From a virus: a DNA stretch of 41,172 nt. The DNA lies in the IMG/VR virus record IMGVR_UViG_3300042934_000521, positions 1 through 41,172 of that record; one strand, written 5' to 3'. Each line of letters starts with the position of its first letter. Positions within the stretch are counted from its first letter, which is position 1. Below, one piece after another: positions 872 to 11,601 of the stretch. The position numbers and the translations under genes are program-made. Below the pieces are notes generated by a model. It was not told the DNA's origin and made no database searches. It was given only the letters and a program-made list of their open reading frames with translations.

Positions 872-1609
872 GTGGCTCAATACAAGGCAGACGTCGATAT
901 CTACACATCGAACGATTCAGGTCCGCGCAATACGAACGCGCTGAAGTGGATCATCTTCCACACCACCGAAAACAGCGGCAACACGACCGCCCAGGACGTG
1001 GCCCGATATCAGCAGAACCCATCCGCCGGCGGCTCGTACAACGTGCTGACCGACAAGTTCGGCACCTCGGTCCGATCGAACGACGACAACTACGTCCCAT
1101 GGGCGGCCGGCTCGAATGCCGCCAACATCGGCGGACTGCACATCTCGGTTGTCGGCCAGGCCGCACAATCCCGAGAGGTATGGCTTCGCGATTACGACAA
1201 AGCGCTGCGCAAGTCCGCGGAGGTCGTCGCGAAGTGGTCGAAGGACTACGACATCCCACTCGTTCGGCGCTCATCCGCCGACCTGAAGGCGGGTGTCAAG
1301 GGCATTGCGGGGCACAACGAGTGCTCACAAGCCTTCGGCGGCTCTGACCATTGGGACCCCGGAACCGGGTTCCCCTACGACGTAGTCATCGGCTACGCGC
1401 AAACAATTCTCAACCCCACCAACCCGTCAACTCCAGGAGGCACCATGTCGTACGAACAGGACACCAACGCGCAGCTCACCGGATCTCCCGAACTGGGCAA
1501 GTACCCCGGCTGGCCGCAGCTCGGCAACCGCACCGTCGTCGATGCCCTCGGTGCCATCGGCGCCAAGCTGGGAATCGCCGGGTTCGTCGACAAGAAGGCG
1601 GGCCAGTAA
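872..1609 (+). CDS. lysA: Endolysin (lysin A): N-acetylmuramoyl-L-alanine amidase (amidase_2/PGRP type) with a C-terminal wall-binding tail
   Basis: GTG start lies 6 nt after AAGGAG (860-865). Motifs IIFHTTEN and GHNECS..GGSDHWDPG are present. C-terminal QLTGSPELGKYPGWPQLG resembles actinophage LysA C-termini. Confidence 0.85.
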   Translation: MAQYKADVDIYTSNDSGPRNTNALKWIIFHTTENSGNTTAQDVARYQQNPSAGGSYNVLTDKFGTSVRSNDDNYVPWAAGSNAANIGGLHISVVGQAAQSREVWLRDYDKALRKSAEVVAKWSKDYDIPLVRRSSADLKAGVKGIAGHNECSQAFGGSDHWDPGTGFPYDVVIGYAQTILNPTNPSTPGGTMSYEQDTNAQLTGSPELGKYPGWPQLGNRTVVDALGAIGAKLGIAGFVDKKAGQ

Positions 1610-1902
1610 TGACGAACCCGAATCTCGACATCCTCGGAAACATCCTCCGTGAGAAGGTCGCCGACCAACCGCTCGTGAAGCGTTACGCGAATACCGTCAC
1701 GTCGGCCGTGGGTCTGCTCGTGGCGGTGGTGTGGACGCTGATCTCGGCTGGCGTTGACCTTCCGTCGCAAGTGACGACGGGAGTCCTTCTGCTCGTCAGC
1801 GTCTTCACTGTGGTGGGCATCAAACTCACTCCGAATGGCGTCACCGAGAAGCAGGTGGTCGAGATCGAAGAGTACGTCGGCCGACACCGCTCGGATAGCT
1901 GA
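1609..1902 (+). CDS. Holin-like membrane protein (97 aa, 2 predicted TM helices)
   Basis: ATG overlaps the lysA stop (TAATG 1607-1611). Hydrophobic helices AVGLLVAVVWTLISAGV and GVLLLVSVFTVVGI. Lies directly after the endolysin. Confidence 0.6.
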   Translation: MTNPNLDILGNILREKVADQPLVKRYANTVTSAVGLLVAVVWTLISAGVDLPSQVTTGVLLLVSVFTVVGIKLTPNGVTEKQVVEIEEYVGRHRSDS

Positions 1903-4213: not shown

Positions 4214-4632
4214 TGCCCCACATATTCGTTCGCGCCGGTAGCCGTTTCAGCCAAGTTGGGATGACGAAGAACGGCGACCAGCAGTTAGCGTCAGGCAGCA
4301 CATGGGTGCCGATCGCTGCGTGGACTGCGGACGGCAGCTCGACCGTCATTGGCAATGCCCTCCAAGTCAAGGGCTCTGGCACTGCCACGATCGAGGTCGG
4401 TTCCGCCTGGACAGTTCTCGGAACGGCGAACAAGGACTGGCGCGTGCTCAAGAACGGCGTCGTCGTGTGGACGAAGGGTGCGTCGACCGGTCAGACGTTC
4501 TCGCATTCGTTCTCCCTTGCCGTCGTGGACGGAGACCTTCTCACCTGCGAGGGTTGGAACAACTCTGGTGTCGCCGACAACCGAACCGTCGCTTCGGGTG
4601 CCGGAACCTACCTGCGCGTTATCCCTGCGTGA
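4213..4632 (+). CDS. Hypothetical beta-rich protein (139 aa) coupled to the tail-fibre-like gene
   Basis: TAATG overlap at 4211-4215. Internal start of track ORF 3988..4632. High GC3. Confidence 0.55.
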   Translation: MPHIFVRAGSRFSQVGMTKNGDQQLASGSTWVPIAAWTADGSSTVIGNALQVKGSGTATIEVGSAWTVLGTANKDWRVLKNGVVVWTKGASTGQTFSHSFSLAVVDGDLLTCEGWNNSGVADNRTVASGAGTYLRVIPA

Positions 4633-4643
4633 TTGGATGCAAC

Positions 4644-4680
4644 AAAGCCCCCCAGCCGCAATGGCTGGGGGGCTTTTGTC
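4644..4680. terminator. Bidirectional intrinsic terminator between convergent genes
   Basis: GCCCCCCAGCC (4647-4657) pairs with GGCTGGGGGGC (4663-4673), loop gcaat. It is flanked by AAA upstream and TTTTG downstream. Confidence 0.85.
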
Positions 4681-4681
4681 G

Positions 4682-4957
4682 TTACGGCAGTTCTCGCGGC
4701 TCGAACTGTCCGTACATCCCGGACGGTCGACCTTCGAGGTAGTCCCGGTTCTGCCCGTCCGCCCGGTCTGCGATCACCTTCGCGGCTGCCCGATTAGATG
4801 CTCGCCGCCTGGCAGCCAGTCCGTAGGCTGCGCCTGCGCCGACGGCAATCCAGACGAGAGCACCGATCCACAGGGTCGATATGAGGCATCCGAACAATCC
4901 GATAGCACTCACTCCGAGCGCTGCCCAGTACAGCCATCCAGTGATCCGATTACGCAT
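4682..4957 (-). CDS. Small membrane protein (91 aa, 2 TM plus charged tail)
   Basis: Track ORF. WLYWAALGVSAIGLFGCLISTLWIGALVWIAVGAGAAYGL. Its start overlaps the upstream sORF stop (ATGCGTAA). Confidence 0.6.
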   Translation of the reverse strand: MRNRITGWLYWAALGVSAIGLFGCLISTLWIGALVWIAVGAGAAYGLAARRRASNRAAAKVIADRADGQNRDYLEGRPSGMYGQFEPRELP

Positions 4958-5096
4958 GTCGGAACCTCAACCGGTTCTGAGCCTGGTAGGCCACGATTCC
5001 GCCCCAGACGATCCAGAGTGGCCACGGGGCGGACAGGATCGCCAGGACTGCGCCTGTACTGATTGTTCCCAGGATGTCGTAGTTTCGCTTGAGCAT
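4950..5096 (-). CDS. Unlisted small membrane protein (48 aa): MLKRNYDILGTISTGAVLAILSAPWPLWIVWGGIVAYQAQNRLRFRHA
   Basis: Hand translation of the minus strand. AAGGAG lies 7 nt upstream of the ATG (5096). 8-nt overlap with the next gene. Below the 60-aa track cutoff. Confidence 0.6.
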   Translation of the reverse strand: MLKRNYDILGTISTGAVLAILSAPWPLWIVWGGIVAYQAQNRLRFRHA

Positions 5097-5140
5097 CGCA
5101 TTCTCCTTGCCGTCTTGTCGTTAATGATGGACCCTTGAGG

Positions 5141-5171
5141 GGGACCGGGGTGACTCCTTCACCCCGGTCCC
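5141..5171 (-). terminator. 13-bp perfect hairpin between two minus-strand sORFs (U-tract-less terminator/attenuator candidate)
   Basis: GGGACCGGGGTGA (5141-5153) pairs with TCACCCCGGTCCC (5159-5171), loop ctcct. No T-tract on either strand. Confidence 0.5.
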
Positions 5172-5179
5172 GTCTCAGG

Positions 5180-5299
5180 TCAGCGTTTCCGCTTCCGGTG
5201 TTTGCCTTGCTTCCTCGGCTCCCGATTCTGGATTGTCATCCAGATGTTCGTGATCAGTGTTGCAATCGCGACGATCAGGGCGATTCGGCTTTCGGTCAT
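5180..5299 (-). CDS. Unlisted 39-aa hydrophobic peptide with a poly-basic tail: MTESRIALIVAIATLITNIWMTIQNREPRKQGKHRKRKR
   Basis: Hand translation. GAGGAGG lies 7 nt upstream of the ATG (5299). One TM helix plus a KR-rich C-terminus. A hairpin follows immediately. Confidence 0.6.
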   Translation of the reverse strand: MTESRIALIVAIATLITNIWMTIQNREPRKQGKHRKRKR

Positions 5300-5330
5300 T
5301 CACTCACCTCCTCTCTGCTGTTGTTCCATA

Positions 5331-5359
5331 ACTGTAGCACCCTTAAGGGTGGTCCACAA
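5331..5359 (-). promoter_or_regulatory. Promoter of the membrane-peptide operon, with a palindromic operator in the spacer
   Basis: Minus strand reads TTGTGG - 17 nt - TGcTACAGT (extended -10). The spacer contains the perfect 12-bp palindrome ACCCTTAAGGGT (5339-5350). Confidence 0.55.
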
Positions 5360-5395
5360 GTCGTGAAAGATGTTTGTTTCTCGATTCGGAAAGAC

Positions 5396-5424
5396 TTCTT
5401 GACCATCTTTAAGGATGCTAGAAT
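5396..5424 (+). promoter_or_regulatory. Promoter of the 54-aa HTH gene, with a related palindrome in the spacer
   Basis: TTCTTG - 17 nt - TGcTAGAAT (extended -10 at 5416-5424). The spacer holds ATCTTTAAGGAT (5405-5416, 10/12 palindromic). Confidence 0.6.
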
Positions 5425-5451
5425 GAGGGGTACCCGAACCAAGGAGAGACC

Positions 5452-5616
5452 GTGATCCGCTTCATGTCGCGCGGCGAAATCGCCGACTACCTCGGCGTCA
5501 CCCTCGCCACCGTCAAGCAGTACAAGACGTTCCCACCGCCCGACGCGATGATCGGCCGCAACCAAGGCTGGACAAAAGAAACCGTCGACGAGTGGGTCAA
5601 GTCCCGCAAGACGTGA
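5452..5616 (+). CDS. Unlisted excisionase/AlpA/MerR-family HTH DNA-binding protein (54 aa)
   Basis: GTG 5452 lies 5 nt after AAGGAG (alternative ATG 5464). SRGEIADYLGVTLATVKQYK...GWTKETVDEWV matches the Xis-type HTH pattern. Below the track cutoff. Confidence 0.65.
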   Translation: MIRFMSRGEIADYLGVTLATVKQYKTFPPPDAMIGRNQGWTKETVDEWVKSRKT

Positions 5617-5626
5617 AATCAACGAA

Positions 5627-5661
5627 AACGCCCCCACCTCACAGTGGGGGCGTTCTTTGTT
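5627..5661. terminator. Bidirectional intrinsic terminator
   Basis: AACGCCCCCAC (5627-5637) pairs with GTGGGGGCGTT (5644-5654). An A-run lies upstream and TTCTTTGTT downstream. It sits between convergent genes. Confidence 0.8.
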
Positions 5662-5665
5662 CGGC

Positions 5666-6277
5666 TCAGTTGGTCGTGATGTTCACGACGCACTGATCGA
5701 CCGCCTGCACTCGCGCGTCGCCAGCGGAGATCTTCAAGGGTGCATCGCTGGCCTTGGTCCAGATCGTCCCGTTGCGGGCGCCGCCAGAAGACGCGTACAC
5801 AAGGTTGTCCTTCACGACCCAAACGTCGGATCGATTCTTGACTTTGCCGGTGCCGTCGACTGTCGTCGCGCCGTAGAACGTCAAGTTGCCATCGTTGATC
5901 ACCGTTCCATTGGTCAACTCATAGCCGTCTGTCGAGAGGCCTGAACTCACCAGGAATGTCAGCTCGTCACTTGCGGGGGCGCATCGCGGGTCGGAAGTCT
6001 TCGCCGCGGCCGCGGCGGGTGTCGACGGCTTGGGGGTAGTCGGCGGAACTGTCGAGGTCGGCATAGGCGCCACCGTCGTAGTTGTTGTCGCGACAGCAGT
6101 GGTTGTTGAACTCGGCGCCGCGCTAGCGCTAGCCACGGCCTTGGTCGGTTCATCCTTCTTGTCTTCGCCGAAGATGGCGCCGATTGCAATCAGAGCGACG
6201 AGAACGGCAACAGTAGCGCCAAGGATTAGCTGCCACTTGGGACGTTTCTTCTCTTTGGGGTCGATCGGTTCAGTCAT
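5666..6277 (-). CDS. Membrane-anchored protein with a Pro/Thr/Ser-rich linker and a ~110-aa extracytoplasmic domain (203 aa)
   Basis: Track ORF. Has N-terminal KKRPKW, TM helix LILGATVAVLVALIAIGAIF, then a PT-rich linker. The C-domain carries two Cys. Confidence 0.7.
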   Translation of the reverse strand: MTEPIDPKEKKRPKWQLILGATVAVLVALIAIGAIFGEDKKDEPTKAVASASAAPSSTTTAVATTTTTVAPMPTSTVPPTTPKPSTPAAAAAKTSDPRCAPASDELTFLVSSGLSTDGYELTNGTVINDGNLTFYGATTVDGTGKVKNRSDVWVVKDNLVYASSGGARNGTIWTKASDAPLKISAGDARVQAVDQCVVNITTN

Positions 6278-6376: not shown

Positions 6377-6832
6377 TCACGTGTTTCTCTTCGTTGAGGG
6401 CCAGATCTCATGTTTCGGATCCCACCATAGGGCGTAGAAATCAGGCCCGCCATCGGGAAGGAACCCGTAGAGCCGACGTTCACCCGAGATTCTTAGTCGA
6501 GCAATTTCTGTTGCATCGTCGAGATCTATTTCCACCAGCCGGTCCCGGGCTGACTTGTTTGGCAGTTTGGCTACCGGGTATTTTTTGCCCTCCTCACTTC
6601 CGGGGGCAAACAGATCTGAGCACTGCATTGTCTCGAGGGATGAAATGCGAGCGAGCAAATCCTGAAGGTGTGCAGCCGTAATTTCGCTCAGACACCAGGG
6701 GCCCTTTACGTCGAGCCGTCCCAGGCGGATACGAAGTAACCCTTCGCCAACGACCGGCCGGAAGTCCTTCGGGGGAGCGATGTACTTCGGAATCGCCGAA
6801 GCAGGTTTCTGCTTCGGAATTTTACGGCCCAC
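6377..6832 (-). CDS. Unknown 151-aa protein, candidate toxin partner of the upstream Panacea-domain gene
   Basis: GTG start lies 6 nt after the upstream TAG. No family was recognised. The C-terminus RLRISGERRLYGFLPDGGPDFYALWWDPKHEIWP loosely resembles RelE/ParE/Gp49-type cores. Confidence 0.6.
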   Translation of the reverse strand: MGRKIPKQKPASAIPKYIAPPKDFRPVVGEGLLRIRLGRLDVKGPWCLSEITAAHLQDLLARISSLETMQCSDLFAPGSEEGKKYPVAKLPNKSARDRLVEIDLDDATEIARLRISGERRLYGFLPDGGPDFYALWWDPKHEIWPSTKRNT

Positions 6833-6838
6833 TGCCGC

Positions 6839-7291
6839 CTACTGGGCGGTCTCGCGAGACATTTCCTCGTAGAACTCCAACATGGTTCCAATGTCGATTA
6901 CTGCATTGCAGCGCTGCCCCTCAGGAATCCCGTGGCGCGCCTCCTGCCACGGACGTTCGTTGTGGGTCAAGTTACTGAGCTGATGCGCAGTCATTCCACC
7001 GTAAGCATCGACAACCGCCAACACCGTGCTTTTCTCCGTGTCGGTCAATAGCGCCGGTGTTGCATCTGGGAAGGAGTTCGGTTCGATCTGGAATTGCCCG
7101 CGATGCGCGCGGTAAAGGGCCGGTATTACCGGTCCGTTTGCCCAGGCCTCGATCTCTGACTGAAAAAGGAGTTCGCCTTCGAAGACTAGGTGCCACGCCT
7201 GGGAGTAGTAGGTCAACTTCTGGAGCTTCATGGCGGACATGCCGCCCTTGTTGTCCACGATGAACCGTGCGACATCAATGACTCGAGCCAT
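6839..7291 (-). CDS. Panacea-domain (DUF4065 / SocA-GepA-like) protein, putative antitoxin (150 aa)
   Basis: GGGGAGG RBS is present. The motif MKLQKLTYYSQAWHLVFEGELLFQSEIEAWANGPVIPALY is the family hallmark as I know it. Confidence 0.75.
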   Translation of the reverse strand: MARVIDVARFIVDNKGGMSAMKLQKLTYYSQAWHLVFEGELLFQSEIEAWANGPVIPALYRAHRGQFQIEPNSFPDATPALLTDTEKSTVLAVVDAYGGMTAHQLSNLTHNERPWQEARHGIPEGQRCNAVIDIGTMLEFYEEMSRETAQ

Positions 7292-7306
7292 GACTACCTC
7301 CCCAAA

Positions 7307-7341
7307 TTAATCCACAAACGATCCACAGGTTTATCCACAGG
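7307..7341. repeat. Phased array of DnaA-box-like 9-11-mers (TTAATCCACAA, GATCCACAGG, TTTATCCACAGG); a further copy at 7450-7460
   Basis: Read directly from the sequence. Unit spacing is ~11-12 bp. The array lies 16-50 nt upstream of the panA-like start codon. Confidence 0.7.
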
Positions 7342-7365
7342 ACGGTTTGATTTATCTCAGCCTAG

Positions 7366-7377
7366 TGTATATACACC
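7366..7377. promoter_or_regulatory. Perfect 12-bp palindrome GTGTATATACAC (operator or -10 candidate)
   Basis: Read directly. AT-rich core in a GC-rich intergenic region upstream of the panA-like operon. Confidence 0.4.
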
Positions 7378-7594
7378 CTACGACCTAACCGGCTGGCCGG
7401 ATGCGTTTCAAGTGCATCCTCGCACGTCACTTGCCATTTCACGGCAGAGTTATCCACAGGCTGTCCGTCCAATCGGCCGAACAGGATCGAGGTGTGCATA
7501 GCGAAATTGCGAGGCCCGGCCGGTCTTCCCTTACCTTCCGGACCTCGCGGGATCGAAGCTACCACTCATCGAACAGGTGTGCGAATCTTTAGGT

Positions 7595-7798
7595 ATGCCG
7601 TCGACTGAGCGATCCCCGCAACGCTGCCCGAACGGGCACTCGCTGGCGGCGAACACGTGCCTCGTCGGGTGGGAAGTTTGCGGCTGTGCGACCGCCCACA
7701 ACGGTGGCCACCGGACGCACTACTGCCGAAGGTGTGGTGAGACGATCCGGACGCCCGAATGCTCCGGCGCAGAACCGCAGAAGTCCCGGTGGCACTAA
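7595..7798 (+). CDS. Small zinc-ribbon protein (67 aa; alternative GTG start at 7577)
   Basis: CPNGH...C.C....GGH..HYCRRCG....PEC pattern. GC3 ~80%. The RBS is weak. Confidence 0.55.
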   Translation: MPSTERSPQRCPNGHSLAANTCLVGWEVCGCATAHNGGHRTHYCRRCGETIRTPECSGAEPQKSRWH

Positions 7799-7912
7799 GG
7801 CGTGAGCCGTGAGTGTCAATTGCCGAGCGTTGATTGCCGTGAGTCAACTCGTCGACATTGACTCCGAACGTGTGTGCGAATTTCTGTCGGTGGCTCGGCG
7901 CAATATCTCGGC

Positions 7913-8302
7913 ATGAACTCACCATTCCTCCGCACGCGCTTCCTTAGCAACTACCCGTTTGCGGAACTTTGTAGCCGCGGTTGGCAGCTGTCGTCTGTGT
8001 CTGAGCCGAAGGTGCGGAGGCCGGAAATGGGTCCGATTCGCACCGCGAACTTCGCATGGGGAAATGCAAATTTCACCTTTGACATCAACGCACAGGATCA
8101 GATGAGTGAGTTTGCGACCTACGCTCGCGACGAAGACATCACACTTGTCGCGGAGACCGCCGCTGCGGTCGTGGCCCTTGCCGTCAGCCCTCCCCGGATG
8201 TCGGTCGAGCAACTTTGTGAGATCGACGGTGTGGTGGAGTTCGAATCTCGCTGGAACTCTCCAGCGCCGAAGCTGTTCGAGTGGACAGAATACGGACAGT
8301 GA
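7913..8302 (+). CDS. Hypothetical protein (129 aa from ATG 7913; track start GTG 7874)
   Basis: Track ORF with moderate GC3 and no recognisable motif. The antisense ORF 7919..8428 looks like a GC shadow. Confidence 0.45.
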   Translation: MNSPFLRTRFLSNYPFAELCSRGWQLSSVSEPKVRRPEMGPIRTANFAWGNANFTFDINAQDQMSEFATYARDEDITLVAETAAAVVALAVSPPRMSVEQLCEIDGVVEFESRWNSPAPKLFEWTEYGQ

Positions 8303-8402
8303 GGTCATCGAGAGGGTTCGAATGGCATCGAACCTGATGGAATGAATACGCTGGTGATGGGCATTTGTTGACAAGGGAACAGCGCATATGCGGTAGTCCG
8401 AA

Positions 8403-8430
8403 TAGGGTTCGAAACCCTCCGCGCCCACAA
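8403..8430 (+). other. tRNA 3'-end-like segment (T-arm plus acceptor strand): candidate attP common core
   Basis: TAGGG-TTCGAAA-CCCTC then CGCGCCC-A. No matching 5' acceptor strand lies upstream. It sits ~90 bp from the 3' end of int. Confidence 0.55.
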
Positions 8431-8432
8431 AA

Positions 8433-8468
8433 GCCCCTCATCTGCGAGTGCAGGTGAGGGGCTTTTTT
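8433..8468. terminator. Strong intrinsic terminator after the attP core (usable in both directions)
   Basis: GCCCCTCATCTGC pairs with GCAGGTGAGGGGC (one G-T pair) followed by TTTTTT. AAAA lies upstream. Confidence 0.85.
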
Positions 8469-8518
8469 GTGCCGGAAATCAACGTGGACTCAGCGGGAGC
8501 GGACAGTTTTCGGACAGC

Positions 8519-9646
8519 CTACGAATTGATGACGGCCAGTCGAGCCCGGTCCAGCGCGCTCGCGACGGTGTCCAGATCGTCGTCAAACAGTTCTGCGTAC
8601 ACGTCCAAGGTGAGCGCCGCGGACTCGTGACCGAGCATCCTTTGCACAGCCTTCACGTTTGCGCCCGCTGAGATCGCCAGTGACGCCGCGGTGTGCCGAA
8701 GGTCGTGTGGAGTGATCGTCGGGAGCTCTGCAGCCTCTACGGCTCGGATAAACCACCCGCGTGGCGTCTTCGGCCGGCGCATGAAATCGCCGTCCGGTCC
8801 CGAGAAGACCAGCGACTCGCGACCCTTTCCGACGCACTGCTTCGAGAGCTCGTCGACGAGGAATGCGGGGATGGGGATCGAGCGAGGCTTGTTCGACTTC
8901 GGCGTCCCCACGACGATCTCCGATCCGACTTCTACGGCGTTCCGGCTGACGCTCACGCGCCGGCGCAGAAGGTCGAGGTCGCCAACTTGCAGTCCGATAG
9001 CCTCACCCCATCGGAGGCCGCAGTACGCCAGGAACAGGACGAGGGTCGACCATTCCCCGGCACTATCGGCCAGTGAGGCGACTTGAGCGTGTGTCAGATA
9101 GATCTTCCGCTTCGCAACTTTCCGCGGGAGGTTGTCTACATCGCGAGCCTTGTTCGCGAGGATCTTCCGGTCTCGCACCGCCCGGTCGAGCAAACCGGAC
9201 AGAACAGCGTGCGCACGGATCACCGTCGTCGCGCTTGCAGCCTTCTTGATGATCACTTCCGGATTCGTGGGGTCCCTCTGATCGGTGACTAGGTCCGTGA
9301 TCCAGTCCTCGACCATCGTGACTTCGATGTCCGCAATTCGCACGGTGCCCCACTCGGGCTTTACGTGAACCCTCCACGCCGATTCGAGCGGCTTGTAGGC
9401 CGAGGCCTTCAGCTTCGCCTTCTTGGTGTCGAGCCACGGTTGCGCCAAAGATTCGACTGTGAGCTTCCCGTGCTTCGGGTCCACGAACTCGCCGTCGAGC
9501 TTCCTGACCTCGATGCGATTGGCGAAACTCTCGGCCGCAGGCTTGCTTGGGAATCCTGCTTTGGACCCTTGGGAGCCGTCTGGCTTCATGTAGCGAACCT
9601 TGTACCGCAGGCCCGACTTCGTGTCGTAGGACTTGATGGTTGCCAT
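8519..9646 (-). CDS. int: Tyrosine integrase (375 aa)
   Basis: AAGGAG RBS. N-terminal arm-binding-type domain. C-terminal HDLRHTAASLAISAGANVKAVQRMLGHESAALTLDVYAELF catalytic signature. Confidence 0.95.
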   Translation of the reverse strand: MATIKSYDTKSGLRYKVRYMKPDGSQGSKAGFPSKPAAESFANRIEVRKLDGEFVDPKHGKLTVESLAQPWLDTKKAKLKASAYKPLESAWRVHVKPEWGTVRIADIEVTMVEDWITDLVTDQRDPTNPEVIIKKAASATTVIRAHAVLSGLLDRAVRDRKILANKARDVDNLPRKVAKRKIYLTHAQVASLADSAGEWSTLVLFLAYCGLRWGEAIGLQVGDLDLLRRRVSVSRNAVEVGSEIVVGTPKSNKPRSIPIPAFLVDELSKQCVGKGRESLVFSGPDGDFMRRPKTPRGWFIRAVEAAELPTITPHDLRHTAASLAISAGANVKAVQRMLGHESAALTLDVYAELFDDDLDTVASALDRARLAVINS

Positions 9647-9666: not shown

Positions 9667-9735
9667 CGGACCAATAGCGGACCGATGTCGCCGTTGTGTG
9701 CGAACATATGTTCGAACTGTTCGAGGTTCGAATGG
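9667..9735. promoter_or_regulatory. Regulatory region upstream of int: operator-like site, 14-bp palindrome and GTTCGAR repeats
   Basis: CGGACCAATAGCGGACCG (9667-9684) is the operator arms with a 4-nt rather than 2-nt spacer. CGAACATATGTTCG at 9701-9714. GTTCGAA/GTTCGAG/GTTCGAA at 9710, 9719 and 9727. Confidence 0.45.
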
Positions 9736-9760: not shown

Positions 9761-9973
9761 ATGACAATTGAGGCGGAGCTGCACCGAGCAGTAGTTGTTG
9801 ATCGATCCATCAGTCTTGAGCGCGTAGCGGGACTGACAAAGCGATCGGCGCAACAGGTGCGGCAGCAGATCCTTGGAGAGCGTGAGTTCTCGGTGTCCGA
9901 GATCGTGGTGATCGCTCACGCTCTCCAGTTGGACTGGAAGCTACTGATCCAGTCTTGCAATAGCGCGACCTAG
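9761..9973 (+). CDS. Small XRE-like HTH protein (70 aa)
   Basis: ISLERVAGLTKRSAQQVRQQILGEREFSVSEIVVIAHALQL HTH pattern. Its 3' end overlaps the repressor gene by 33 nt (convergent). Confidence 0.5.
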   Translation: MTIEAELHRAVVVDRSISLERVAGLTKRSAQQVRQQILGEREFSVSEIVVIAHALQLDWKLLIQSCNSAT

Positions 9974-10177
9974 CAACTCAGGTATCTGCTCGCCGAAGAC
10001 TTCACAGATCGCCCCCATTTGAGCCATGTCCGCGGGACGCTCACCATTCTCAAGGCGCTGGATAGTCTTTGAACTCAGGCCCGTCTTCGTGGCCAATGCT
10101 TCCCTGCTGAGGTTCATTCGCGCGCGAGCTGCTCTAATCTCGTCGCCGATCATCCTGTTCAGCTGTTCTATATCCAT
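9941..10177 (-). CDS. Immunity repressor candidate, CI/XRE-type HTH (78 aa)
   Basis: MNLSREALATKTGLSSKTIQRLENGERPADMAQMGAICEVFG. Divergent from a Cro-like gene across an operator-rich spacer. Confidence 0.7.
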   Translation of the reverse strand: MDIEQLNRMIGDEIRAARARMNLSREALATKTGLSSKTIQRLENGERPADMAQMGAICEVFGEQIPELLGRAIARLDQ

Positions 10178-10178
10178 A

Positions 10179-10297
10179 GGTCACATTAGACCACATTTAG
10201 GACCGAAAAGAAACTTCTTTGTCCCGTATGGACCAAGGCGCGTAATCCCATGCTTGACATTTGGTCCGTATGGTCCTTAATCTAGTCCGCATGGTCC
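10179..10297. promoter_or_regulatory. Immunity switch region: divergent promoters plus 14-bp operators
   Basis: GTCCCGTATGGACC (10221-34), GGTCCGTATGGTCC (10263-76) and AGTCCGCATGGTCC (10284-97), plus related GGTCACATTAGACC and GACCACATTTAGGACC (10179-10204). Rightward promoter: TTGACA 10254-59 - 18 nt - TAATCT 10278-83. Leftward -10: TAATGT (10188-10183). Confidence 0.7.
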
Positions 10298-10527
10298 CAA
10301 TCAACGAACTCACCGCAGCGGCCGTGCGAGACGCCAAAAAGGCAGCCGGCGCGACCATTGAATCTCTGTCAGACGCCACCGGAATCCCCACATCGACGTT
10401 GAAGCGTCGACTGAACGGGCAGGTCTCGTTTGGCCTCGATCAGATCGTACTGATCGCGATCGCACTCAACGTTCCTTTCGAACAACTCATCCCGACATCA
10501 GACGCCCTCACTCGGAGCGCGGCATGA
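10291..10527 (+). CDS. Cro-like XRE HTH protein (78 aa from ATG 10291; track start TTG 10261 lies inside the promoter)
   Basis: ATIESLSDATGIPTSTLKRRLNGQVSFGLDQIVLIAIALNV. The ATG lies ~7 nt after the -10, consistent with a leaderless mRNA. Confidence 0.65.
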   Translation: MVPINELTAAAVRDAKKAAGATIESLSDATGIPTSTLKRRLNGQVSFGLDQIVLIAIALNVPFEQLIPTSDALTRSAA

Positions 10528-10754
10528 ACGCCGAGATTCCGCAGACTCCGAAGCAGATTGCACACCTGCTCGGGTGGCAGGGGCCGGGCACGTACACCAG
10601 TCCGTCGTACGACGCAGTCGTGATCGCCTGTCAACGGGGCGAACTCAAGGCCAGGCAGACCGGAAGTCGTAAAAGTCGATGGCTGATTCTGCCGTCCGAC
10701 GCGATCGCTTGGCGATCTGGCGTCAAGCCTCAAAGGCTCAGGCGAACTGCATGA
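10524..10754 (+). CDS. Excisionase-family/MerR-like HTH protein (76 aa); second Xis/RDF candidate
   Basis: ATGA overlap with the upstream gene. TPKQIAHLLGW...RGELKARQTGSRKSRWLILPSDAIAW pattern. Confidence 0.5.
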   Translation: MNAEIPQTPKQIAHLLGWQGPGTYTSPSYDAVVIACQRGELKARQTGSRKSRWLILPSDAIAWRSGVKPQRLRRTA

Positions 10755-10854
10755 GAAAGCCGCCATCTGCGCGAACAGATGACGGCCCGTCGATCACCTC
10801 TGGAAGGAATCTAATGACTGAGACTACCGCATCAATCAGGATCGGGTGGGCCGC

Positions 10855-11601
10855 ATGAGCATTGAACGCTTCACGTACGCCTCGACCGACCTTCACGCCA
10901 CTATCCGCACCATAATCATCGACGGTGAACCTTGGTTCGTCCTCGCGGATCTCTGCAAGGTTCTGGACCTCACAACTCCCGCACGAGTCGCTGAACGCAT
11001 TGACCCAAAGGGTGTGAGCCAGACTCACATCCCTACTGCGGGCGGAACCCAGAAGATCACGATCGTCAGCGAGTCCGGAATGTACGAAGTCGTCTTCCGG
11101 TCAGACAAGCCCGAGGCCGTAACCTTCCGTCGCTGGATCACAGGCACTGTCCTGCCAACGATCCGTAAGACTGGCACCTACTCCACGGTGCCGGCACTGA
11201 CCGACGACGAACTGATCCACCAGGCCCTCTCGATTTCAGCCACTCGCGTGGCTGCACTTACCGAGCGCGTGGCCGAGCTCGAGCCCAAGGCGGAACTCGC
11301 GGAGAACTACCTCACCGCATCAGCCGGCAGTCGACTCGTCGGCGAGGCCGCGAAGATCCTCGGCATGAAGGAGAAGCAGCTGCGAGCTTTCCTGCTCGCC
11401 GAGAAGCTGATCTTCGTCAAGCATGCGACCTGCGGCAATGTTCTGTACGACCACTACTCCGACTTTGCGCCGCACTTCGAGGCGCGCGAGACGGTCGTCA
11501 ATCACACCTGGGGCTCGTGCAATCACTACACGCTTCGCATCACTCCTCGCGGAATCGACTTGATTCGCAAGCGACTTCGTGACCAGGAGGAAGCGGCATG
11601 A
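10855..11601 (+). CDS. Antirepressor, Bro-N domain plus KilAC/ANT-type C-terminal domain (248 aa; alternative GTG 10846)
   Basis: IDGEPWFVLADLCKVLDL...SESGMYEVVFRSDKPEAVTFRRWITGTVLPTIRKTGTY is a classic Bro-N signature. Confidence 0.85.
   Translation: MSIERFTYASTDLHATIRTIIIDGEPWFVLADLCKVLDLTTPARVAERIDPKGVSQTHIPTAGGTQKITIVSESGMYEVVFRSDKPEAVTFRRWITGTVLPTIRKTGTYSTVPALTDDELIHQALSISATRVAALTERVAELEPKAELAENYLTASAGSRLVGEAAKILGMKEKQLRAFLLAEKLIFVKHATCGNVLYDHYSDFAPHFEARETVVNHTWGSCNHYTLRITPRGIDLIRKRLRDQEEAA

Follow-up and report, generated by a model that had tools for sequence, protein, structure and literature searches.

The 41,172-nucleotide viral stretch analysed here (IMG/VR record IMGVR_UViG_3300042934_000521, positions 1 to 41,172; 61% G+C; "the window" below) carries, on the two sides of a short intergenic region, a rightward gene for a 54-amino-acid (aa) winged helix-turn-helix (HTH) protein, HTH54, and a leftward set of genes for small membrane peptides. 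Two back-to-back promoter-like sequences, P_L and P_R, lie between them, each with a palindrome containing TTAAGG in its spacer. The two palindromes, O_L and O_R, have the appearance of operators, HTH54 is most likely the protein that binds them, and the locus is probably a small accessory cassette, complete in itself, of an actinobacteriophage that is temperate or present as a prophage. Its features, from left to right, are the following.

4644–4676, unstranded: bidirectional terminator hairpin that separates mem91 from the tail-fibre gene convergent to it.
4682–4957, minus strand: mem91, a 91-aa membrane protein (phrog_6558) that overlaps the mem48 stop.
4950–5096, minus strand: mem48, a 48-aa hydrophobic peptide.
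5141–5171, minus strand: conserved hairpin between mem39 and mem48, with a 13-bp stem and no U-tract.
5180–5299, minus strand: mem39, 39 aa, with one transmembrane helix and the polybasic tail KQGKHRKRKR.
5331–5339, minus strand: extended −10 of P_L, TGcTACAGT (hexamer TACAGT, 5336–5331); the minus-strand sequence with this hexamer, the spacer and the −35-like TTGTGG reads CTTGTGGACCACCCTTAAGGGTGCTACAGT.
5338–5351, unstranded: O_L, perfect 14-bp palindrome CACCCTTAAGGGTG, putative operator of the leftward promoter.
5354–5359, minus strand: −35-like TTGTGG of P_L, 17-nt spacer.
5362–5377, unstranded: conserved central element GTGAAAGaTGTTTG / GTGAAAGnTGTTTG between the operators, which resembles an operator half-site and forms an inverted-repeat pair with O_R.
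5396–5401, plus strand: −35-like TTCTTG of P_R, 17-nt spacer.
5404–5417, unstranded: O_R, imperfect palindrome CATCTTTAAGGATG, symmetric at 12 of 14 positions, putative operator of the HTH promoter.
5416–5424, plus strand: extended −10 of P_R, TGcTAGAAT (hexamer TAGAAT, 5419–5424).
5441–5448, plus strand: Shine-Dalgarno sequence of the HTH gene, AAGGAGAG.
5452–5616, plus strand: HTH54, 54-aa winged-helix protein of phrog_597, predicted operator-binding autoregulator.
5627–5654, unstranded: bidirectional intrinsic terminator closing the HTH gene and a convergent 203-aa gene.

Each palindrome ends one base before an outward-facing TAnnnT −10, its last two bases being the TG of the extended −10, and with the consensus CAYCYTTAAGGRTG it covers roughly −27 to −14 of the predicted promoter. 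The transcription starts predicted from this geometry fall at about 5323–5325 for P_L and 5430–5432 for P_R, some 107 bp apart. A first-pass annotation of this DNA had described the promoters TTGTGG-17-TGcTACAGT and TTCTTG-17-TGcTAGAAT with a 12-bp palindrome in each spacer and 66 bp between the palindrome centres. Both promoters are indeed in the sequence and the spacing stands, being fixed in all the versions of the region described below; the leftward palindrome is longer than given, a perfect 14-mer over 5338–5351 beside a weak −35, and the rightward one is 12/14 symmetric over 5404–5417 beside a −35, TTCTTG, that is not conserved. The promoter core, the 20-mer GACCAnCnTTAAGGnTGCTA, is present in the window in exactly two copies, one per strand (0 of 100 shuffles), and TTAAGG is found in the 41,172 bases solely at 5343 and 5409. 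A single perfect 14-bp palindrome is not rare (six in the window, about 4.2 expected), so the significance of the arrangement rests on the paired identical motif, its fixed −10 register and its conservation. With up to two mismatches allowed, the motif matches at 5338, 5404 and 5729; the match at 5729 was rejected as a third site, having two mismatches, lying inside a variable gene and being consistent with chance. A literature search for CCCTTAAGGG matched unrelated primers only, and Rfam, used in both gathering and E-value modes, returned nothing except a terminator mimicking the Thr leader; the reading of the region as an RNA element was dropped, this match being terminator mimicry only.

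Fourteen distinct versions of the intergenic region, from the window and 6 IMG/VR, 2 metagenome and 10 assembly loci with HTH proteins 90–100% identical, were available for comparison; the metagenome scan contributed two near-identical loci, and the scan of GTDB genomes distant relatives only. O_L is unchanged across them, one purine (R) position excepted, while O_R reads CATCTTTAAGGRTG in 13 of the 14 and has a symmetry below that of O_L in all. The 66-bp operator spacing is kept with zero insertions or deletions between the operators, and the sequence between them is variable in about half of its columns. Also conserved are the ribosome-binding sites and the central block at 5362–5377. At both promoters A2 and T6 of the −10 are invariant and the interior positions free: the P_L hexamer of the relatives is TACAGT, TATAGT or TATGGT, and that of P_R is TATCAT, TACTGT, TAATAT, TACCAT or others, always TAnnnT, with the P_L −10 constantly 1 nt from the palindrome in eight lineages. 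The rightward −35 is not conserved (TTCTTG, CTATTG, TCCCTG, TTCTCG), and of the leftward one only TTG is semi-conserved (TTGCAA, TTGCGA, TTGTCA, CTGCAA and similar in relatives). This footprint is the pattern expected where actinobacterial promoters are driven by the −10 and a protein binds within the spacer. The earlier proposal that the palindromes are operators thus gains support from their invariance in the 14 regions and their locking one base from TAnnnT.

HTH54 is most likely the cognate binder of both palindromes, because the motif follows the HTH gene where the cargo is absent and changes with the recognition helix where the cargo stays; the suggestion of the first-pass annotation that the HTH protein binds them is to this extent supported by comparison, the evidence being strong but circumstantial. 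The first half of the argument comes from LonelyBoi, a Gordonia phage whose gp35 is 74.5% identical to HTH54 and has unrelated soluble proteins as neighbours: its complete 53.6-kb genome contains exactly three copies of the motif, two in the divergent gp36/gp35 region and one before gp34. HTH homologues from the protein database that are 61–75% identical (including loci L070–L074) stand divergent from Ku, ArdA, L5 gp82-like or other operons and keep CCnTAAGG-type palindromes (CATCCTTAAGGATG, CACCCTTAAGGGTA, TACCCTAAAGGGTA or CTACCTTAAGGAAG) one base from a leftward TAnnnT. A search of IMG/VR with the motif plus the −10 pattern gave 25 stretches; all of those with at least 58% G+C adjoin an HTH54 gene, and the remainder are single matches in low-GC contigs, by a rough estimate consistent with chance for so degenerate a pattern.

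The second half comes from the mycobacteriophages Sbash, Butters and prophiGD51-1 and the Rhodococcus phage Whack, in which the membrane peptides are kept, the HTH sub-family is changed and the palindrome is changed as well. The recognition helix LATVKQYK goes with CACCCTTAAGGGTG. Where the helix is GSLSKIK (Sbash, Butters), the palindrome is CACCCTTGnTTAGGG, immediately followed by TAAAGT, and a AACCCTCCGGAGGGTT stands upstream; where it is DPT[LM]SGY (Whack, prophiGD51-1), the palindrome is TCCGTTCnnnACGG, before TAGATT or TAAAGT. The TinaLin HTH, 54% identical, goes with CCCC..GGGG-type dyads. Among homologues with the TTAAGG operator, both the recognition helix and the wing (GRNQGW) are invariant. 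One further feature separates the near from the distant homologues: in the latter (L017, L068, L070–L072, L074, L075 and L001) the HTH gene has its own −10 placed 6–7 nt ahead of the start codon and lacks a Shine-Dalgarno sequence, which points to leaderless mRNAs, whereas in the clade of the window an AAGGAG Shine-Dalgarno sequence is part of a leader some 21 nt long.

HTH54 itself belongs to phrog_597, "DNA binding protein" (PHROG match 2e-19), and its gene has a G+C content at third codon positions of 0.89. The AlphaFold2 (AF2) model built from a ten-sequence alignment has a predicted local distance difference test (pLDDT) value of 89 and shows a β-α-α-β-β-α winged helix; this model was used in place of the mediocre single-sequence one (pLDDT 70). 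The best Protein Data Bank matches in Foldseek are N-domains of the MerR family on promoter DNA (BmrR, NmlR, MtaN, CadR), RacA, RdfS, BldC and RppC, with template-modelling (TM) scores of 0.6–0.75 and probabilities of 0.9–1.0 at E-values that are all at least 0.04; the RdfS excisionase superposes on the model with a TM score of 0.70. By sequence, the closest solved relative is an AlpA-family protein (E = 0.03). HTH54 scores 19.6 bits against TIGR01764 (cut-off 28.8) and 15.1 bits against PF12728, HTH_17 (cut-off 27). The 54-aa gene and its terminator, as first annotated, are both there (open reading frame (ORF) 5452–5616, terminator 5627–5654), and the label "excisionase-family" is true at the level of the fold only, because the sequence stays below both thresholds. 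Members of the family occur in more than 560 actinobacteriophage genomes, where they are annotated without a function; about 440 genomes of Mycobacterium phages have them, those of PG1-type phages (about 68 kb) among the number.

On the other side of the intergenic region, the first-pass annotation had counted three small membrane peptides. All three ORFs are present on the minus strand; mem39 and mem48, which accompany the HTH gene in all close relatives, form the core, and the 91-aa gene is variable, occurring in some relatives only. The mem39 peptide is 85–92% identical in close relatives and 59% identical to prophiGD51-1 gp35, through which it is linked to Sbash gp34. Homologues of mem48 found by tblastn are Butters gp33, Sbash gp33, Purky gp32 and prophiGD51-1 gp36, with 45–48% identity to the Butters and Sbash proteins, and a BLASTP match stands at 47% identity (E 2e-12); that of mem91 is Whack gp32, and Whack holds the whole series plus this mem91 homologue. 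In Butters, Sbash, Purky and prophiGD51-1 the next gene after the peptide homologues encodes a phrog_597 HTH protein. The window thus has, side by side, homologues of all three products of a module of the Sbash 32–34 type, with its HTH gene on the opposite strand under its own promoter and not in a single co-directional operon. Since peptide–peptide–HTH homologues are adjacent in the relatives, the cassette is a rearranged version of a conserved three-gene module.

The hairpin between mem39 and mem48 shows a compensatory change from C-G to T-A in L013 and L014 and is possibly an attenuator or RNA-stability element. Directly 3′ of it on the mRNA strand, at 5130–5143, the sequence GACCCTTGAGGGGG agrees with the operator in 11 of 14 positions and has no in-register −10. 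In locus L015 (3093–4165), O_L drives a co-directional operon of the Sbash type (a 41-aa peptide, a 49-aa peptide and an HTH protein, HTH64), a second operator/−10 unit drives a small additional ORF that is closed by a terminator of its own, and a third drives HTH54; the arrangement looks like an evolutionary intermediate between both architectures. Butters (L078) has at 2781–2912 an unannotated 43-aa ORF, the amino acids of which are the same as in Sbash gp34; it lies beneath the "gp34" of the annotation, and the C-terminal half of that "gp34" looks as if it were translated out of frame. A hairpin with a 10-bp stem follows this 43-aa ORF, between the first two genes of the module.

What is known of the relatives bears on the peptides. 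In Sbash lysogens genes 32–34 are transcribed as an operon, and genes 32 and 33 are candidates for a second, still-unassigned defence against phage Giles (PMC6426596). For Butters, the list of variable-region proteins expressed in lysogens includes gp32 and gp33 (PMC7542560). The peptides most likely serve a prophage-expressed membrane function such as exclusion or defence. In a comparison with a bicistronic type II toxin-antitoxin operon under autoregulation by its antitoxin, the locus has operators of the autoregulation type, its genes are divergent where those of the Sbash-type relatives are co-directional, and its HTH protein comes without an extra neutralisation domain. The PADLOC models gave a weak match to HTH54 (the MADS1 HTH, E 1e-4), confined to the HTH part.

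From this material we arrive at a model, with a probability of about 0.6, in which a local autoregulatory repressor would gate a prophage accessory cassette that is neither an excisionase nor a holin set. The two promoters would be of the sigma-A type, each mainly of the extended −10 kind (TGnTAnnnT) and each with one palindrome. HTH54, made from P_R, would bind both palindromes as a head-to-head dimer and occlude RNA polymerase; at the weaker, imperfect O_R this would repress its own gene, and at the perfect O_L the leftward operon mem39–hairpin–mem48(–mem91). No activator would be needed by promoters with a 17-nt spacer and an extended −10 that looks sufficient by itself, and repression by occlusion is the simplest outcome of an operator at about −27 to −14 of such promoters; the sign of the regulation, repression, is put forward on these grounds. 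That O_L is perfect and O_R consistently less symmetric agrees with a peptide operon that is shut more tightly than the HTH gene. In a lysogen, the small and potentially harmful membrane peptides would thus be kept at a low level whatever the dosage, and a burst of these peptides might follow when the DNA enters a cell without the regulator.

Several observations weigh against this model. An E. coli-style promoter scan called neither promoter (a 7/12 match each), a miss that we do not read as absence because the −35 hexamers are weak. The 66 bp between the operators amount to about 6.3 helical turns, for which reason cooperative looping is not obviously favoured. HTH54 ends after the wing and helix 3 with no evident dimerisation or sensor domain, and dimer binding and any inducing signal are assumptions of the model. 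The dyad lies almost exactly mid-spacer, as in MerR-type activators, and the fold is MerR-like. On the side of the cargo, the PADLOC models gave zero matches to the three cassette peptides, and a Sbash deletion of gene 34, the mem39 homologue, had no phenotype in the assays done (PMC6426596).

The chief alternative, that HTH54 instead acts as an activator, a MerR-like, spacer-centred co-occupant of the promoter with RNA polymerase that would autoregulate positively and switch the peptide operon on, is unlikely in our judgement, although it can draw on more than the resemblance to MerR-family N-domains bound to promoter DNA: the dyad centres are 9 and 8 nt from the ends of the 17-nt spacers, the −35 hexamers are weak or unconserved, and the Sbash-type operon is ON in lysogens despite encoding its own HTH protein. 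MerR activation, however, needs an over-long spacer of 19–20 bp, where both spacers here are of 17 nt, and it needs a C-terminal coiled-coil and effector domain beyond the wing and helix 3 at which HTH54 stops. The TGnTAnnnT extended −10 is moreover a self-sufficient promoter type in actinobacteria, and the consistently weaker O_R fits the logic of a repressor. We consider it improbable that another protein (the immunity repressor, a different phage regulator or a host regulator of the CsoR/RicR type, which recognises a TACCC-N-GGGTA-like dyad) occupies the palindromes and that HTH54 is a mere neighbour. Some distant relatives (L072) do have TACCC..GGGTA-like arms, which may recall copper-repressor boxes; the CATCT half-sites do not fit TACCC. 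Whatever the host or genomic setting, the motif occurs together with the HTH gene alone, and a different recognition helix goes with a different motif. Binding by the immunity repressor was rejected, as the cI/cro intergenic region uses a different repeated operator, GTCCGTATGGTCC.

The two remaining alternatives concern what the cassette is for. As a phage excisionase (recombination directionality factor), perhaps with a secondary role as a repressor like P2 Cox or 186 Apl, HTH54 would have an appropriate Xis/RdfS-like winged-helix fold and weak similarity to TIGR01764, Gifsy-1 Xis and phrog_66, and no other ORF of the window reaches an excisionase model. We nevertheless hold this to be quite improbable, as HTH54 is below the curated cut-offs of TIGR01764 and HTH_17, its gene is 2.9 kb and several genes away from the integrase gene (int), and zero copies of the motif lie in 7300–8520, which includes the candidate phage attachment site (attP), or in int itself (8519–9646). 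The sites are inverted repeats and lie at promoters; they do not form arrays of direct repeats in an att arm. In LonelyBoi a gene of its own, gp48, is annotated as excise, and the Mycobacterium phages with family members include those of the PG1 type, which are not known to be temperate. Together with the lysogenic expression of Sbash 32–34, these points fit the first-pass annotation where it called the locus a regulator plus effector moron and not a canonical excisionase. ORF 10524–10754, Xis-like by eye, was tried as the "true" excisionase; it matches no family model and was not used as evidence. Least credible of all is that the cassette serves to time lysis, its three membrane peptides making up a further holin/antiholin set. 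The proteins are small, have one or two transmembrane segments and are encoded just downstream of the tail/lysis region, but the phage has its own endolysin and phrog_3428 holin on the other strand, 2.8 kb away, the peptide genes are convergent to the late genes, and their homologues are lysogenically expressed in Sbash and Butters. A holin role was excluded because this separate lysis cassette is present.

Beyond the repressor model we entertain, as a doubtful extension, that the trio of mem39, mem48 and winged HTH is a widespread actinophage system in which a minimal MerR-fold repressor restrains membrane-active peptides, the release of which would lead to superinfection exclusion or to a defence of the abortive-infection type. 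Release would occur when repressor is lacking, that is, on entry into a naive cell or after titration or loss of the repressor. If so, the trio could equal the second defence of Sbash against Giles.

The window as a whole looks like a complete temperate genome of the siphovirus type. Genes for terminase, portal, capsid and tape measure occupy about 23.7–37.3 kb, and minor tail genes wrap around to the window start. Endolysin (872–1609, plus strand) is directly followed by the phrog_3428 holin (1609–1902, plus strand), both set among tail genes; this lysis cassette (872–1902) lies between minor-tail genes and is then followed by a 520-aa fibre-like protein, an unusual order that is also found in LonelyBoi. 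The tail-fibre genes end at 4632, and a leftward-facing accessory region follows. Further genes are these.

Accessory region, after the HTH cassette, convergent to the HTH gene: 203-aa membrane or secreted protein.
8519–9646, minus strand: tyrosine integrase.
9941–10177, minus strand: cI-like gene.
10261–10527, plus strand: cro-like gene.
10846–11601: antirepressor gene.

The region between the cI-like and cro-like genes (10222–10297) has three copies of a GTCCGTATGGTCC-like repeat, unrelated to the TTAAGG motif, which are probably the immunity operators. A near-identity DNA search of INPHARED gave zero matches to the window. A 41-kb Logan contig is 100% identical to it across the 6.2 kb compared, and the assembly collection has the identical HTH54 protein in 46 of its indexed blocks (24 contigs read), with chromosomes of about 6.3 Mb among them, from which we take the phage to belong to a prophage lineage that is common in its host. 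That host is probably Rhodococcus-like, on grounds that include the GC content and the best tail and peptide matches, which are to the Rhodococcus phage Whack.

Several other features of the accessory region and its surroundings were seen. Between 6296 and 7501 lies a block of two minus-strand genes (6377–6832 and 6839–7291), in which a gene for a Panacea-domain protein (a PanA-type antitoxin) is followed by a 151-aa ORF without a family; the two probably form a PanA-toxin pair. A prophage in chromosome CP089606.1 (L090), elsewhere 97% identical, lacks the whole block, which identifies it as an inserted moron. Upstream of the Panacea gene, at 7308–7458, is a cluster of repeats, TTATCCACA (two exact copies), TAATCCACA and GATCCACAG, which resemble an E. 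coli-type DnaA box and may be an operator array of the Panacea operon; their genome-wide count is not above chance, and the clustering alone is of note. A 45-nt element at 7508–7552 recurs with 82–91% identity in the prophages L081, L082, L085 and L089, in three of them directly after the HTH terminator, and may be a module-junction or recombination sequence. The attP candidate is at about 8396–8428 (region to 8470): GGGTTCGAAACCCTCCGCGCCCACA resembles a tRNA 3′ end, 25 nt of it (8404–8428) exactly equal the prophage/host junction in L085, a strong terminator comes next, just downstream of int, and ARAGORN did not find a complete tRNA there. Between the integrase start and a 70-aa HTH ORF (9761–9973), GCGAACATATGTTCGA at 9700–9715 agrees with the actinobacterial LexA/SOS box TCGAAC-N4-GTTCGA at 11 of the 12 specified positions, and a second LexA-box-like site with one mismatch is found at 7569–7584, before a small Cys-rich ORF (7596–7799).

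These results predict a specific operator, CAYCYTTAAGGRTG, one base upstream of the −10, for a large unannotated family of small HTH proteins, and they make the regulator a fixed partner of two conserved membrane peptides in a module of prophages of Mycobacterium, Rhodococcus and relatives. The covariation of operator and recognition helix is a ready-made specificity series for a minimal domain of the MerR/Xis fold, and the homology of the module points to lysogen-expressed genes beside the known defence loci of Sbash and Butters.

The regulatory design, an autoregulated small repressor with palindromic operators at divergent promoters, is conventional. In the C proteins of restriction-modification systems and in the Cro/CI switches, too, a small HTH dimer acts on palindromes over its own promoter and that of an effector, giving autoregulation and control of timing or dosage. 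The likeness is one of working principle only, without sequence relationship: those proteins are HTHs of the Xre type and control nuclease or lytic genes, while HTH54 is a winged helix of the MerR/Xis type with membrane peptides as its effectors. With the MerR family (BmrR, NmlR, MtaN), BldC, RacA, Xis/RdfS and AlpA, HTH54 has the fold of the DNA-binding domain in common. In the MerR family the dyad is also centred in the −35/−10 spacer, yet of 19–20 nt and not 17, and HTH54 has no coiled-coil dimerisation helix and no effector domain. BldC and Xis bind direct repeats, whereas the sites of the window are inverted repeats. P2 Cox and 186 Apl, to which no sequence similarity of HTH54 was detected, are likewise small phage proteins of the Xis fold that also repress promoters; they bind direct-repeat arrays at att and the lysogenic promoter, unlike the window with its motif-free attP neighbourhood.

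Closer are two sets of phage loci. LonelyBoi gp35 has the same operator, CACCCTTAAGGRTG, is divergent from gp36 and takes the same position between tail genes and integrase; its intergenic operators are 21 bp apart, compared with 66 bp in the window, a third site stands before gp34, the neighbours are small soluble proteins and not membrane peptides, and the HTH mRNA is probably leaderless. The trios Sbash 34-33-32, Butters gp33-gp32, prophiGD51-1 gp35-38 and Whack gp35-32 are homologous to that of the window, their products being a transmembrane peptide whose tail is polybasic, a second peptide, about 50 aa long, that starts (M)LKRNYD, and a phrog_597 winged HTH. They share with it the variable region between tail/lysis genes and integrase, a palindrome that abuts the −10 of the module promoter and, in Butters, a hairpin between the first two genes. 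Their HTH proteins are 27–34% identical to HTH54, have a wing insertion of 10–11 aa and go with a different operator sequence; and where the three Sbash-type genes are co-directional in one operon, the HTH gene of the window is inverted, with its own divergent promoter and a second operator.

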